Sequence record: OR525703.1 | Direction: 5' to 3' (one strand) | Source of the DNA: Escherichia phage vB-Eco-KMB36 | Length of the DNA stretch: 44,710 nucleotides | Part shown: positions 2,784-7,949 of the stretch, in pieces | Layout of the letters: every line of letters begins with the position of its first letter | Position numbering within the stretch: the stretch's first letter is position 1 | Notes under the pieces: generated by a model | Told to the model about the DNA's origin: nothing | Seen by the model: only the letters and a program-made list of their open reading frames with translations | Databases searched by the model: none | Made by a program: the position numbers and the translations under genes

Positions 2784-4754
2784 ATGCTATTAACTTTAGC
2801 GCCACAGGGTTCATCTATGAGCTTACTTACATCTCTAATCAGCCACCAGATATGGCTGCAACGCACTGCATCCGGTGAGGTGAAAGACCTCGCGCCGTTC
2901 ATTAAGGAGATGCGGGACGAAATAAAACGGCAGGTGCTGTTATTCGGCGACGACGGGCGAAGCACCGCGCGACTGAATAAACTGTTACGCGACCTTGAAG
3001 AAGCACTTACCGCGCTTACCGGTGACTGGCGGACAAAGCTGACGGAAGACCTTAAGGAGCTTGCAGCGTATGAGGCTGAGTGGAATGTGAAGACACTCAC
3101 GGCTAACGTTAATGCGGAATTTGTTACCCCGACCGCTGAACAGGTGTGGTCCGCCGCCGAGTTTCAGCCATTATCATTAAGCGACAAGCCAGTTGACTTC
3201 ACTAAGCTGATGTCGGGCTGGGGGGAAACAGAAGTCGCGCGCCTTGTAACAGGCGTTAAGATGGGCTTTGTACAAGGCCAGACAACACGGCAGATTGTTA
3301 AGAATGTTGTTGGTGCTGGTGGTTTGGCGGACATTTCAGAACGTAACGCGGCTACTGTAATCCGCACCGCGCTGTCTCATGTATCCAACGAGGCCCGTAA
3401 CGAGACGTACCGCCAGAACGACGACATCATCGAGAAGTACGAGTGGGTGTCGACGCTGGACAGCCGTACCAGTACAACGTGTTTCACGGCTGAAACAGAA
3501 TTAGCGCCCATCGCGGGGATGGACGCGGTAATGCGCGGACTCTATTCAGGAAAAATCCTTACCATCGAACTTTCCAACGGCGAGAAGTTCAGTGGCACCC
3601 CGAAACACCCTGTACTCACGCAATACGGATGGACTCCGCTTGATGAACTCGACCCAACTAAGCATGTCTTGTATACCACTGTTGACAAAGTGACTGTGCT
3701 CGAAACAGTGAAGAACATAAACATGCCAGCCAGAGCGGATTATATTTTTAATACGCTCGCTGATTTCCCCATCAGGAAAATGGTAAGCACGAGTCCCGCG
3801 GCAACAGATTTCTATGGCGATGGAGTGGGACTCAATGGCAAAATCGACATTGTACGGGCCGATTGCAAACTGCGGAACTACGTCCACGCCAGCGGAATTA
3901 AACAATTCAAAAGCGAGGGTTTCAGTCTTATTCATAGCGCCGCTTTGCTGTCGGACGATAGCTCTGGCGATTTTCTCCTCCGGGGTGAATGTCCTGTGAG
4001 TGTGCCCGCGCTTAGCGAGGCCAAGTGTTTTGACCATAGAATAGAAAACTGTTTTGCTTACTTGGGTCCTTCTTATGCACTCAATAGGCGGGACGCCGGA
4101 CTCGAACAATTCTATAGCCCTTTTTTGATTCAAAATGGTGTCGTTAGAAACCCAACCACGGGGTCGATCATGCATGAGTCCGAGCTTCTTGAGAAATGTT
4201 GTTACCGTGGTGGTAGTGACGCCGTAATTCTTGGCTATGATGCTGGCGGGAGTGCCATCTCGGTACAAAGAACAAATATCATCCGCATAAGCGTCGAGTT
4301 TAGAACGTGCCATGTTTATACCCTCTCTAGTAGTCAAGGATATTATACAGCAGGTAGTGCGATAGTCAAGAATTGCAGGGCCAGAGACGGAATGACGTGG
4401 GAAATCGGTAAAGGACCGATGCCCCCGGCCCATTTTGGGTGCAGAAGTACTACCGCACCAGTAATCAGTTCCGAGTTCGACTTCCTCGATAAAGGCGCGA
4501 AACGCGCAGCTAAGGGCGCAGAAGGTGGTACCCAGGTAAGCGCAGACACCACCTATTACGAGTTCCTTAAACAACAACCGGCATGGTTTCAGGATGAAGC
4601 ATTAGGGCCGGTTCGCGGTAAGATTTTCCGTAACAGCGGTATATCGCCGGAAGAGTTTCGCGTAATATCTGTAGATGGTTTCGGGAATCCGCTGACGCTT
4701 AAGCAGATGGCGGAACTCGATAAACGTGTTGCTGATTATCTGAAAGAGGATTAA
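2784..4754 (+). CDS. head morphogenesis protein (SPP1 gp7 / Mu F-like) containing an in-frame intein
   Basis: Extein motifs DSRTSTT...CRARDGMTWEIGKGPMPPAHFGCRS match the Mu F/gp7 signature once residues 233-530 are removed; alternative start ATG 2817. Confidence 0.7.
   Translation: MLLTLAPQGSSMSLLTSLISHQIWLQRTASGEVKDLAPFIKEMRDEIKRQVLLFGDDGRSTARLNKLLRDLEEALTALTGDWRTKLTEDLKELAAYEAEWNVKTLTANVNAEFVTPTAEQVWSAAEFQPLSLSDKPVDFTKLMSGWGETEVARLVTGVKMGFVQGQTTRQIVKNVVGAGGLADISERNAATVIRTALSHVSNEARNETYRQNDDIIEKYEWVSTLDSRTSTTCFTAETELAPIAGMDAVMRGLYSGKILTIELSNGEKFSGTPKHPVLTQYGWTPLDELDPTKHVLYTTVDKVTVLETVKNINMPARADYIFNTLADFPIRKMVSTSPAATDFYGDGVGLNGKIDIVRADCKLRNYVHASGIKQFKSEGFSLIHSAALLSDDSSGDFLLRGECPVSVPALSEAKCFDHRIENCFAYLGPSYALNRRDAGLEQFYSPFLIQNGVVRNPTTGSIMHESELLEKCCYRGGSDAVILGYDAGGSAISVQRTNIIRISVEFRTCHVYTLSSSQGYYTAGSAIVKNCRARDGMTWEIGKGPMPPAHFGCRSTTAPVISSEFDFLDKGAKRAAKGAEGGTQVSADTTYYEFLKQQPAWFQDEALGPVRGKIFRNSGISPEEFRVISVDGFGNPLTLKQMAELDKRVADYLKED
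3480..4373 (+). mobile_element. intein (Hint domain, about 298 aa) in head morphogenesis protein
   Basis: Starts CFTAETEL, block B GTPKHPVLTQYGW, C-terminal VYTLSSSQGYYTAGSAIVKN followed by Cys+1; penultimate Lys instead of His. Confidence 0.6.
3546..4313 (-). CDS. putative homing endonuclease (tandem HTH + Vsr/DUF559-like nuclease) encoded antisense inside the intein
   Basis: 256-aa ORF from ATG at 4313 with upstream GAGAGGG; HTH-like TPASIIAKNYGVTTTTVTTFLKK and VSKTVFYSMVKTLGL; nuclease-like PYNVDFAIESHSIAIEI and ERIKNIIRSGWHVYVL; lies entirely within intein 3480..4373. Confidence 0.45.
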   Translation of the reverse strand: MARSKLDAYADDICSLYRDGTPASIIAKNYGVTTTTVTTFLKKLGLMHDRPRGWVSNDTILNQKRAIELFESGVPPIECIRRTQVSKTVFYSMVKTLGLAKRGHTHRTFTPEEKIARAIVRQQSGAMNKTETLAFELFNSAGVDVVPQFAIGPYNVDFAIESHSIAIEICCRGTRAYHFPDGEISERIKNIIRSGWHVYVLHCFEHSHFVNSGIQDMLSWVEFIKRSPSVLREYRVFRGATELLAVGKFDGKDFS

Positions 4755-6136: not shown

Positions 6137-6838
6137 ATGAATCGTTTTTTACGCTATCCGTTCCAGGAAGAAGCTGGGGCTGAAGATAAATCTGGTGGCG
6201 GTGACGCGCCGAAAATGTTCACAGCCGAAGAAGTTCAGGCGCTGATTGAGAAAGAAGTTGCCGGACTTAAGGCTAACCAGGAAGCATTGCTGGCAGAGAA
6301 GAAAGAAGCCGCTCGCAAAGCAAAAGAGGCTGAAGAAGAACGGCAGCGCGCACACCAGGAGGCGTTAAAAGCCGCCGGTAAGATGGACGAGTTCGAAAAG
6401 ACTATTCGTAGCCAGTATGACCCGGTGTTAGCCGAGAAAGATGGTCGCATCTCCAAAATGGCGGAGCGCATCCTCGGCAGCGAACGTAAGGCAGTGTTAG
6501 GCTCTTTCGCGGGTGACTTTATTACCCCGGAAGCAGTAGACATTCTTGCACCGTTCGTTAAGACTGAGTTCGAAGGCGATGACGTGGTTACTAAGTTTGT
6601 CGGTGCAGATGGCAACGTAATCACGACTGACCCGGAACAGTTCCGCAAATACCTGCGCGAACACAAAGCGTTTTCGCATTTGATTAAAGCAAATGCAGCT
6701 TCCGGCGGCGGGGCTTCCGGTGGCAAAGGCGGCGGGGCCGCACCAGCGTTTAAAGACATGAGTGAAGCGGAGCGTTTAGCTCTGTATAAATCGAACCCTG
6801 CCGAATTTGAACGGCAACTTAAAGCCCTGAGGAAATAA
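6137..6838 (+). CDS. scaffolding protein
   Basis: Charged coiled-coil-rich ORF immediately upstream of major capsid gene; ATG 6137 preferred over TTG 6083. Confidence 0.55.
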   Translation: MNRFLRYPFQEEAGAEDKSGGGDAPKMFTAEEVQALIEKEVAGLKANQEALLAEKKEAARKAKEAEEERQRAHQEALKAAGKMDEFEKTIRSQYDPVLAEKDGRISKMAERILGSERKAVLGSFAGDFITPEAVDILAPFVKTEFEGDDVVTKFVGADGNVITTDPEQFRKYLREHKAFSHLIKANAASGGGASGGKGGGAAPAFKDMSEAERLALYKSNPAEFERQLKALRK

Positions 6839-6840
6839 TA

Positions 6841-7890
6841 ATGGCAATTACCACTATCGGCGATATCGTAACTGGCAACATCCCGGTCCTGGCGTCTTAT
6901 ATGACAGAGGACCCGGTAGAAAAAACCGCGTTCTTCCAGTCCGGTATTCTGACCCCGACTCCGTACGCCGCAGAGATTGCTCGCGGTTCGTCCAACGTCG
7001 CCAACATTCCTTTCTGGAAAGCGATCGATACCTCTATCGAGCCGAACTACTCGAACGATGTGTATCAGGACATCGCTACCCCGCGTAATGTGCAGACTGG
7101 TGAGATGATGGCGCGCGTTGCGTACCTGAACGAAGGTTTCGGTCAGGCGGACCTGACCGTTGAACTCACCAGCCAGAATCCGCTGCAATCCGTAGCATCC
7201 CGTCTTGATAACTTCTGGCAGCGCCAGGCGCAACGCCGTCTGATCGCCACCGCGCTCGGCCTGTACAACGACAACGTAGCCGCTACCGATGCTTACCACG
7301 AGCGGAATGACATGGTAATCGACGTGTCCGCTACTCTGGGCTTCGACGCAGGTGCGTTCATCGACGCTACCCAGACTATGGGCGATGCTCTGATGGGCAA
7401 CGGTGGCGAGGTGCTGGGTGCTATCGCGATGCACAGCTTCGTTTATGCGCAGGCACGTAAGCAGCAGCTTATTGACCTCATCAAAGATGCTGACAACGAC
7501 ACCCTGTTCGCCACCTACCAGGGTTACCGCGTGATTGTTGACGACAGCATGACTGTAGTCGGTACCGGCACGAGCCGTAAGTTCATCTCCATCATCTTCG
7601 GCAACGGCGCTATCGGTTACGGAGAAGGTAACCCGACCAATCCGCTGGCATATGAGCGCGAAGAGTCTCGCGGTAACGGTGGCGGTGTAGAAACCCTGTG
7701 GACCCGTAAGACCTGGTTGCTGCACCCGCTGGGCTACAGCTTCACCAGCGCGGTAATCACTGGCAACGGTACCGAGACGGTCGCACGCTCCGCTTCCTGG
7801 CAGGACCTGGCGAACGCTTCCAACTGGAACCGTGTGGTTGACCGTAAGCATGTACCGATTGCCTTCCTGGTAACTGGTGTCGGTGCTTAA
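6841..7890 (+). CDS. major capsid protein
   Basis: 349-aa ORF downstream of scaffold and followed by strong terminator; size and position typical. Confidence 0.75.
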   Translation: MAITTIGDIVTGNIPVLASYMTEDPVEKTAFFQSGILTPTPYAAEIARGSSNVANIPFWKAIDTSIEPNYSNDVYQDIATPRNVQTGEMMARVAYLNEGFGQADLTVELTSQNPLQSVASRLDNFWQRQAQRRLIATALGLYNDNVAATDAYHERNDMVIDVSATLGFDAGAFIDATQTMGDALMGNGGEVLGAIAMHSFVYAQARKQQLIDLIKDADNDTLFATYQGYRVIVDDSMTVVGTGTSRKFISIIFGNGAIGYGEGNPTNPLAYEREESRGNGGGVETLWTRKTWLLHPLGYSFTSAVITGNGTETVARSASWQDLANASNWNRVVDRKHVPIAFLVTGVGA

Positions 7891-7905
7891 GGTTAAGATA
7901 TAATC

Positions 7906-7930
7906 GAGAGGGACTTCGGTCCCTCTTTTC
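7906..7930 (+). terminator. rho-independent terminator
   Basis: GAGAGGGAC-TTCG-GTCCCTCT hairpin followed by TTTC. Confidence 0.65.
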
Positions 7931-7949
7931 ATTTACTAAGAGGTAAATT

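Follow-up and report, generated by a model that had tools for sequence, protein, structure and literature searches.

A putative Vsr-like homing endonuclease gene antisense to an intein in the MuF-type head gene of a Kagunavirus-like coliphage

The stretch of DNA analysed here (44,710 nucleotides, hereafter the window) belongs to Escherichia phage vB-Eco-KMB36 (sequence record OR525703.1), a Kagunavirus-like siphovirus of Escherichia coli in the Guernseyvirinae, whose nearest records are fEg-Eco06, BEU35 and Ec1-ASingh. Its MuF-type head morphogenesis gene is interrupted by a predicted intein and, on the opposite strand and wholly within that intein, there is a second open reading frame (ORF) that resembles a homing endonuclease gene (Table 1). 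The two are probably parts of a single composite selfish element, in which the plus strand carries the intein and the minus strand the gene for the homing nuclease. An earlier note, made from the letters of the sequence, had proposed this arrangement, and both ORFs do lie where it placed them.

Table 1. Features of the head morphogenesis locus; coordinates are those of the window.
Feature	Coordinates	Strand	Basis
MuF / SPP1 gp7-like head morphogenesis gene, intein-containing precursor, 656 aa	2784..4754	+	ORF list, Pfam, PHROG
N-extein, ending ...DSRTSTT	2784..3479	+	collinear with intein-less allele
Predicted class 1 intein, 298 aa, with Cys1, block B TPKH, terminal Asn then Cys+1	3480..4373	+	boundaries, homology
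N-terminal splicing region, blocks A/B, intein residues 1-74	3480..3701	+	sense frame better conserved
Intein interior, residues 75-261, no recognisable domain, mirror of the nuclease gene	3702..4262	+	antisense frame better conserved
C-terminal splicing region, blocks F/G, CHVYTLSS...GYYTAGSAIVKN	4263..4373	+	sense frame better conserved
C-extein, beginning CRARDG...	4374..4754	+	sequence, comparison with intein-less allele
Antisense gene, 255 aa, two helix-turn-helix modules and Vsr-like (EDxHD-related) putative homing endonuclease	3546..4313 (stop included)	-	
Two helix-turn-helix modules, residues ~2-43 and 57-96 of the antisense protein	4026..4310	-	AlphaFold2, Pfam, PDB profile
Vsr-like nuclease domain, residues ~111-249	3567..3983	-	model, profile
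Shine-Dalgarno-like GAGAGGG, 7 nt upstream of the antisense ATG, complement of block F Leu-Ser codons	4321..4327	-	sequence
Sigma-70-like promoter candidate, TTGACT, 16 nt spacer, TATAAT, 11/12 matches	4342..4369	-	consensus scan
Stable hairpin directly past the antisense stop, terminator-like, weak U tract	3490..3550	-	RNA fold

The product of the plus-strand ORF matches Phage_Mu_F in Pfam (E 3.3e-8) and the head morphogenesis family PHROG 241 (E 1.3e-147), and in the annotation of the relatives this ORF is a minor head protein with an inserted intein. The motif characteristic of the MuF family is split by 298 residues (DSRTSTT↓CFTAETEL…AIVKN↓CRARDG, where arrows mark the boundaries of the insert), and the reading frame continues across the insert without interruption. 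What remains after in silico excision of the insert is collinear with the protein that vB_VIPECOTPH05A encodes in an allele devoid of the intein, and the junction is free of gaps; in that phage and in K1ind2 the vacant site reads ...ACCAGTACGATC↓TGTAGGGCC... The insert is present in only 3 of the 268 related phage records, and the others align as two pieces that cover 54-55% of the gene. Substitutions in the N-extein, compared with the relatives, fall mostly on sense third positions. At extein position -1, every intein-bearing allele encodes Thr (ACG, 3477-3479), whereas the intein-less alleles (for example, L013) encode Ile (ATC), a difference that might reflect co-conversion with the intein or might bear on how the target is recognised.

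Several features lead us to regard this insert as a class 1 intein that is predicted to splice. The catalytic positions are invariant in nine homologues (C1, T40, H43 and N298, followed by Cys+1), all nine family members match Intein_splicing in Pfam at E<=0.01 (best E 1.2e-10), and the family profile matches the solved structure of the PI-MtuI mini-intein (E 2.6e-8). A different possibility is that the insert does not splice at all and is a tolerated in-frame insertion, that is, a mobile endonuclease cassette kept in the mature head protein. Splicing is a prediction here, the penultimate residue is Lys instead of the usual His, and the window intein taken alone scores 20.8 bits, below the Pfam gathering threshold of 35.8, all of which would suit such a cassette. 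This explanation is nevertheless scarcely credible, given the complete set of invariant splicing residues (Cys1, Thr and His of block B, terminal Asn and Cys+1), the match of the family profile to solved mini-inteins, the strong constraint on the sense frame of the splicing blocks (described below) and an insertion point that lies directly before the Cys of the conserved MuF motif. The penultimate position itself varies among K, R, S and H across the intein family.

The antisense ORF starts with an ATG at 4313 and ends with a stop codon at 3548-3546; the earlier note had given these same limits, with a length of 256 residues that has to be corrected to 255. The antisense frame is free of stops over 343 codons (3546..4577) and is codon-aligned with the sense frame, each sense codon being the reverse complement of an antisense codon, with antisense position 1 opposite sense position 3 and antisense position 3 opposite sense position 1. 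The probability that 256 codons lack an antisense stop, computed from the codon usage of the window (TTA, CTA and TCA avoided), is approximately 7.5e-4. Both frames are thus open, as the earlier note had stated, but its idea that the arrangement forces dual-strand coding overstates the cost, since a nuclease gene in this phase needs only to avoid TTA, CTA and TCA in order to keep the intein frame open.

A longer antisense open frame exists elsewhere in the window (565 codons, 6238..7932, minus strand), where it overlaps the gene for the scaffold (6137-6835) and that for the major capsid protein (6841-7887). Its translation found no match in a Pfam search, and its substitutions relative to other phages fall on sense third positions (11/9/33, 14/10/60 and 1/0/23). 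This capsid-region frame looks fortuitous and serves as a negative control. Because such a frame occurs in this genome, openness of the antisense strand alone was dropped as evidence, and the ORF within the intein is ranked above chance because of its homology, the frame-specific selection and its confidently predicted fold.

With an alignment of nine sequences, AlphaFold2 predicts for the antisense protein two helix-turn-helix (HTH) modules followed by an α/β nuclease domain, with a mean predicted local distance difference test score (pLDDT) of 78.7 that rises to ~91 in the C-terminal core. The N-terminal half has PDB profile matches to 2lvs and to the HTH of gamma-delta resolvase, and the sequence profile of the nuclease domain matches 3r3p (E 1.6e-6). 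HTH_7 was found by Pfam in seven of the nine family members, MTES_1575 in three and DUF559 in one, while a PADLOC search for defence systems with the antisense protein gave no match. Three acidic residues are invariant in the family, E131 (3923-3921), D157 (3845-3843) and E168 (3812-3810), and the second of these, D157, corresponds in the alignment to D196 of I-Bth0305I, which binds Mg. The motifs of HTH and Vsr/DUF559-like type that the earlier note had seen in the sequence are real.

The sense translation of the same DNA behaves in a very different manner. At equal alignment depth, the mean pLDDT of the sense intein is 36.4, with values above 50 only at residues ~21-70 (56-77) and 261-280, whereas residues 66-261 stay below 50 (~25) and have no predicted fold. 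Searches of the sense insert against Pfam, PHROGs and PDB profiles returned nothing beyond the splicing regions of the Hint fold, and neither LAGLIDADG nor HNH domains were found. An in-frame LAGLIDADG domain is ruled out by the lack of a Pfam or PDB match, by the pLDDT of ~25 and by a sense-frame substitution ratio close to 1.

The frame on which selection acts was determined from frame-wise ratios of nonsynonymous to synonymous substitution rates (dN/dS, or ω) in pairs of moderately diverged relatives, the four copies of the window's own group being too alike (1-3 differences) for this purpose; the metagenome loci L018 and L019, which are the closest diverged relatives but too saturated for dN/dS, served solely to compare motifs and the conservation of each frame. 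In the intein interior, the substitutions that separate SaI_NFG from StyS-sam are distributed 17/8/49 over antisense positions 1/2/3 (antisense ω 0.13, sense ω 1.30). The corresponding figures are 17/5/46 for SaI_NFG and Snoke (antisense 0.11, sense 1.21), 7/3/17 for StyS-sam and Snoke (0.12 and 0.87) and 25/11/39 for Vivi2 and Fosterous (0.31 and 0.66). The antisense frame of the interior is thus under purifying selection in these relatives. Over the first 80 and last 30 residues of the intein the pattern is reversed in all pairs, with antisense ω of up to 2.1 and sense ω of 0.05-0.38 (0.13-0.38 in the N-terminal splicing region and 0.05-0.07 in the C-terminal one).

The same switch is visible in mean BLOSUM scores across 12 non-redundant inteins, in which the sense frame scores higher at residues 1-74 (0.9-2.1 versus 0.1-0.8 for the antisense frame) and 262-298, and the antisense frame at residues 75-261, except for residues 100-124, where the two are about equal. 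This pattern remains unchanged whether the sense or the antisense protein guides the codon alignment. Conservation that switches strand in this way means that the DNA is a mosaic, constrained as an intein at its ends and as a nuclease gene in its middle.

These observations bear on the weaker alternative put forward in the earlier note, namely that the antisense ORF is fortuitous and mirrors a conserved sense intein whose interior is a degenerate in-frame endonuclease (of LAGLIDADG type) or a linker domain. Chance antisense frames do occur in this genome, as illustrated by the 565 codons over the capsid genes; a sense motif, DF(Y/H)GDG..G.(I/V)(D/E)(I/V)V, is conserved, and residues 100-124 are equally conserved in both frames. 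Such a coincidence is very improbable, however, when interior substitutions cluster at antisense third (that is, sense first) positions and sense ω is ~1, when it is the antisense translation that yields HTH and Vsr-like matches together with a confident model while the sense interior yields neither a LAGLIDADG, HNH or other match nor a fold, and when the start codon and ribosome-binding site of the antisense gene keep a fixed position in phages of distant phyla.

A tblastn search with the antisense protein matched 75 phage records. Among them are three near-identical coliphages, 48 Salmonella phage records, the Gordonia phages Vivi2 (E 5e-12), Fosterous and Affeca (both 3e-10), the Haemophilus/Aggregatibacter phages Aaphi23 and S1249, the Idiomarinaceae phage 1N2-2 and the Vibrio phage PvVp04. 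In all eight annotated records that were read, the match is antisense to a coding sequence labelled MuF, head-morphogenesis or hypothetical, and a six-frame reading of Snoke gave the same result. All ten loci compared have a sense gene with an intein and an antisense open frame of 272-406 codons in the identical codon-aligned phase, at G+C contents (GC) from 42% to 68%. Antisense homologues within MuF inteins are therefore present in phages of two bacterial phyla, at every locus examined, which, together with the selection on the interior and the model with two HTH modules and a Vsr-like domain, bears out the proposal of a homing nuclease gene antisense to its host gene. The four coliphages and the metagenome relatives L018 and L019 (45-52% amino acid identity) all have an intact copy of the ORF.

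Searches of protein collections extend this family considerably. Fifty relatives emerged when 5.8 billion proteins were searched with a profile, and 3423 clusters reached E≤1e-3 in an exhaustive HMMER search based on the nuclease-domain profile, 166 of them at E≤1e-30. Metagenome contigs sampled from both searches contained, in nine of nine cases, an antisense ORF within a MuF intein, and no free-standing homologue appeared among these nine, a small sample biased to the top matches. Gene callers report the antisense ORF on such contigs because the short contig cuts off the MuF gene. Standard annotation misses the antisense gene in all complete phage records examined, one Salmonella record annotating a fragment of it: in vB_StyS-sam (L008), part of the gene appears within the head gene as ORF43, a ‘hypothetical protein’ (2185-2586). 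The metagenome proteins P0007, P0012 and P0013 are labelled ‘very-short-patch-repair endonuclease’, ‘DNA-binding protein Fis’ or ‘transposase’. Ahead of the nuclease domain there are between one HTH module (Salmonella/Snoke, L007-L009) and approximately five (L025, 446 aa), and the sense-frame interior of the intein lengthens accordingly (L025 165-1505; L024 313-1467).

The start of the antisense gene keeps a nearly constant position within the intein. Its ATG lies exactly 60 nt inside the C-terminal end of the intein in nine of ten loci and is complementary to CAT, the His codon of block F, in the context (C/G)-H-V-Y-(T/N)-L, just as the ribosome-binding site GAGG is complementary to the Leu codon CTC. 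The sequence GAGAGGG, which the earlier note had seen ahead of the start codon, is indeed present at 4327-4321, and GAGGTTATAAAC-ATG recurs in the Salmonella, Snoke, Aaphi23, Vibrio and metagenome loci. The strand opposite 4263..4373 thus holds the start codon, the ribosome-binding site and the promoter-like boxes. At the other end, the N-terminal splicing region (3480..3701) overlaps the 3' end of the antisense gene, whose stop codon is 3-66 nt from the intein N-terminus across loci, so that the C-terminal tail of the nuclease overlaps blocks A/B. Both ends of the antisense ORF therefore overlap splicing blocks.

The candidate promoter is written in the codons of block G (GYYT...IVKN), and identical boxes are found at an equal distance in L018, L019, Aaphi23, PvVp04 and L014. 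Other site-b loci (see below) have (TG)nTATAAT, derived from the Ile-Ile codons ATT-ATA of GII(A/T)HN, even in contigs with 59% GC. The hairpin past the stop has a folding energy of -22.8 kcal/mol (z -3.6), with a terminator-like site at 3526..3504; no convincing U tract was found after it, and the terminator is a candidate only. As matches to consensus, the promoter, the ribosome-binding site and the hairpin are consistent with an autonomous expression cassette.

Evidence of mobility comes from the comparison of the intein with the gene that surrounds it. Relative to the window, the intein differs at 1 (Ec1-ASingh), 3 (BEU35) and 2 (fEg-Eco06) of 894 nt, and the MuF exteins at 58, 112 and 115 of 1077 nt, respectively; among all four Kagunavirus-type coliphages, the ranges are 1–3/894 nt for the intein and 22–122/1077 nt for the exteins. 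The genes next to MuF diverge by 7-25% among the intein-bearing coliphages. Apart from those 1-3 positions, the tract identical to Ec1-ASingh and BEU35 spans 3453..4414, which corresponds to the intein plus 27 and 41 nt of flanking sequence. Dual coding alone does not explain the near-identity of the window intein, since inteins at a second site (site b), coding on both strands as well, have diverged by 16% (their exteins by 27-35%). A near-identical intein in exteins ~10% apart is the pattern predicted by recent homing with short co-conversion tracts.

Two insertion sites are used within the MuF gene. Site a (DSRTSxx↓C) is occupied in the window, L018 and L019, and site b (PPxHxN↓CR(C/S)), 22 codons downstream, in Snoke, Jerseyvirus, the Gordonia phages, Aaphi23, 1N2-2, PvVp04 and the remaining metagenome loci. 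In the window, site b (PPAHFG↓CRS, 4439/4440) is uninterrupted; the sequences of BEU35 and fEg-Eco06 depart from that of the window precisely at 4434-4439 (HFG versus HPN).

A number of observations weigh against a working homing nuclease gene at this locus. The antisense protein of the window, searched alone, is under the Pfam gathering threshold for every domain (HTH_7 E 1.6e-4, MTES_1575 E 7.2e-4). Many family members have the motif E(V/I)xGGxWH, whose His aligns with the general base H213 of I-Bth0305I and is present in Vivi2, 1N2-2, L016, L017, L021, L022, L024 and L025; in the window, L018 and L019 it is replaced by EICCRGT (3810-3779, minus strand, antisense residues 168-178), with two adjacent Cys and without the canonical general base, and the Salmonella/Snoke (GGGWAC) and Aaphi23/Vibrio lineages likewise have no such His. 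A His at +10 after the motif in the window is not conserved in L018 and L019, and no obvious conserved substitute was seen in this site-a lineage (window, L018 and L019). Frame-specific selection is measurable in the relatives only, and not within the near-identical group of the window. The promoter-like boxes coincide with conserved splicing residues and may owe their own conservation to this overlap, and convergent transcription across a late structural gene might block useful antisense expression. With the general-base His missing, the window protein was not filed as a canonical EDxHD enzyme; in architecture and predicted fold it is EDxHD-like, and its chemistry is uncertain.

Some of these points would be accounted for if the antisense ORF were a real conserved gene that no longer works as a homing nuclease here, either a decaying relic or a DNA-binding protein with another role, in which case the intein would have spread by ordinary homologous recombination or with a nuclease supplied in trans. 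The loss of the general-base His in several lineages fits this explanation, as does selection that escapes measurement in the lineage of the window, and it has been noted that some VSR-like groups appear to be vertically inherited (bioRxiv 10.1101/2025.01.02.630785). A relic is unlikely, although it deserves some weight: the ORF is intact in the four coliphage copies, L018 and L019, and retains E131, D157 and E168; the Salmonella/Snoke lineage, also devoid of the His, still has an antisense ω of 0.11-0.13; and the near-identity of the intein in exteins ~10% apart, with sharp boundaries ~30-40 bp outside it, is the pattern left by homing.

The composite element favoured here would function as follows. 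The intein would be translated together with MuF and would have to excise itself by protein splicing to yield a functional head protein. On the minus strand, a compact unit consisting of the promoter-like site (4369-4342), the ribosome-binding site (4327-4321), the ATG (4313), the stop (3546) and the hairpin would be transcribed and translated into the nuclease. This enzyme would recognise and cut the intein-less MuF allele (…ACC AGT ACx ↓ TGY AGG GCC…) of a co-infecting related phage, and when the break is repaired from the intein-bearing genome, the intein would be copied into that allele together with ~30-40 bp on either side. The insertion would then be made harmless to the recipient by protein splicing. 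The sense interior, of ~190 residues, probably represents a linker without structure, placed where the Hint fold usually receives an endonuclease.

The arrangement itself is already known from homologous inteins of Gordonia phages. Inteins with an ‘anti-sense VSR-like HEN’ have been described in minor capsid proteins of actinobacteriophages, with structural matches (1CW0 and 3R3P) that coincide with those obtained here (Gosselin, Arsenault and Gogarten, bioRxiv 10.1101/2025.01.02.630785, version of 20 October 2025). The supplementary table of that preprint lists Vivi2 gp14, Fosterous gp12, Affeca gp15 and Angelicage gp15 as ‘minor capsid, MuF-like … VSR −1 ORF’, and Vivi2, Fosterous and Affeca are also among the tblastn matches mentioned above. 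According to the same table, Vivi2 (L002) and Fosterous (L006) have an intein in the terminase gene too, so each of these genomes carries two different non-canonical inteins. The window element shares with this group the MuF host protein (IPR006528), a contiguous class 1 intein, an opposite-strand Vsr-like ORF in the codon-aligned -1 frame that encodes a homologous protein, and an ATG 60 nt from the intein end. It differs in that it is carried by siphoviruses of E. coli (Kagunavirus, Guernseyvirinae) and not by phages of Actinobacteria, and in that its nuclease lacks a helical segment of ~23 residues and the GGxWH histidine. In the literature searched, this preprint was the only work to combine an intein, an antisense orientation and a homing endonuclease.

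Vsr-like or EDxHD homing endonucleases were defined previously (Dassa et al., 2009, PMC2677866; Taylor et al., 2011, PMC3239194; PDB 3R3P), and the members known so far are encoded within group I introns, by stand-alone genes or by genes that separate the two parts of a split intein and share the orientation of the host gene (PMC2677866, PMC3239194). Like I-Bth0305I, the window protein has two N-terminal HTH/NUMOD-like modules, a C-terminal Vsr-like catalytic domain and conserved acidic residues; unlike that family, its ORF is antisense within a contiguous intein and the general-base His is not conserved. In fractured genes the parts keep the orientation and the locus of the parent gene (Dassa et al., 2009, PMC2677866). 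A ‘fractured gene’ split intein with a free-standing Vsr-like homing endonuclease gene was ruled out, the MuF ORF being continuous through the intein. Antisense LAGLIDADG ORFs have been described in the inteins of Synechocystis DnaX and of a Chloroflexus SpoVR-like protein (Gorbalenya, 1998; Gogarten, 2002; both as cited in bioRxiv 10.1101/2025.01.02.630785) and are also found in minor capsid inteins of actinophages (bioRxiv 10.1101/2025.01.02.630785). As far as the citing preprint describes them, they resemble the window element in having an opposite-strand endonuclease in a contiguous intein with an interior open in both frames; the nuclease considered here has instead a Vsr-like fold derived from PD-(D/E)xK.

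Closer to the window, a ‘large intein’ has been reported in the capsid morphogenesis protein of Snoke and Jerseyvirus (Corban et al., 2019, PMC6776784; Kuzminska-Bajor et al., 2021, PMC8425127), and a 900-bp intein, a size that fits the window element, in the Kagunavirus vKMB36 (PMC11162368); the antisense gene is not mentioned in any of these papers (PMC6776784, PMC8425127, PMC11162368). Snoke and Jerseyvirus share the phage subfamily and the host gene with the window, and their inteins carry a homologous antisense nuclease ORF of 250 aa. Their inteins (and those of L007 and L008) are at site b, as is that of Vivi2 (H-x-N↓CRC), rather than at site a (DSRTSTT↓CRARDG), and the Snoke/Jerseyvirus element has one HTH instead of two and is ~25% identical. 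What is new here is the enterobacterial-phage host range, the second target site in MuF, the quantitative evidence of strand-switching selection and the apparent abundance of the family in metagenomes, as well as the embedding of a start codon, a ribosome-binding site and promoter-like boxes at a fixed place in blocks F/G.

These last features lead to a broader idea, offered tentatively and at somewhat less than even chances: that the intein and its antisense nuclease are an old, co-evolved, dual-coding unit and not a recent accident, with signals and splicing motifs that constrain each other, and that the unit is widespread and has switched sites. If this is the case, the start codon, the ribosome-binding site and the promoter would be the complements of the block F His, the following Leu and the block G codons, and the rare Ile codon ATA would be retained even in phages of 59% GC as a promoter box. 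The nuclease genes would be among the most widespread classes of systematically unannotated phage genes, with thousands of clusters at 50% identity in at least two bacterial phyla. The family would have moved between two sites in MuF, and the lineage of the window would represent a retargeted nuclease with an altered active-site chemistry.

The locus is a clear-cut natural example of a DNA segment that codes on both strands, in which the selective constraint switches strand along its length. It extends the antisense Vsr-like arrangement beyond actinophages and to a second target site in MuF, and the constant placement of its start codon in block F is relevant to how endonuclease genes that once stood free join inteins, a union that would be more conveniently tested in an E. 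coli system than in Gordonia phages. Finally, Kagunavirus and Jerseyvirus genomes, many of which have been proposed for therapy, carry in a structural gene an unlisted putative site-specific nuclease and an element that is apparently spreading.

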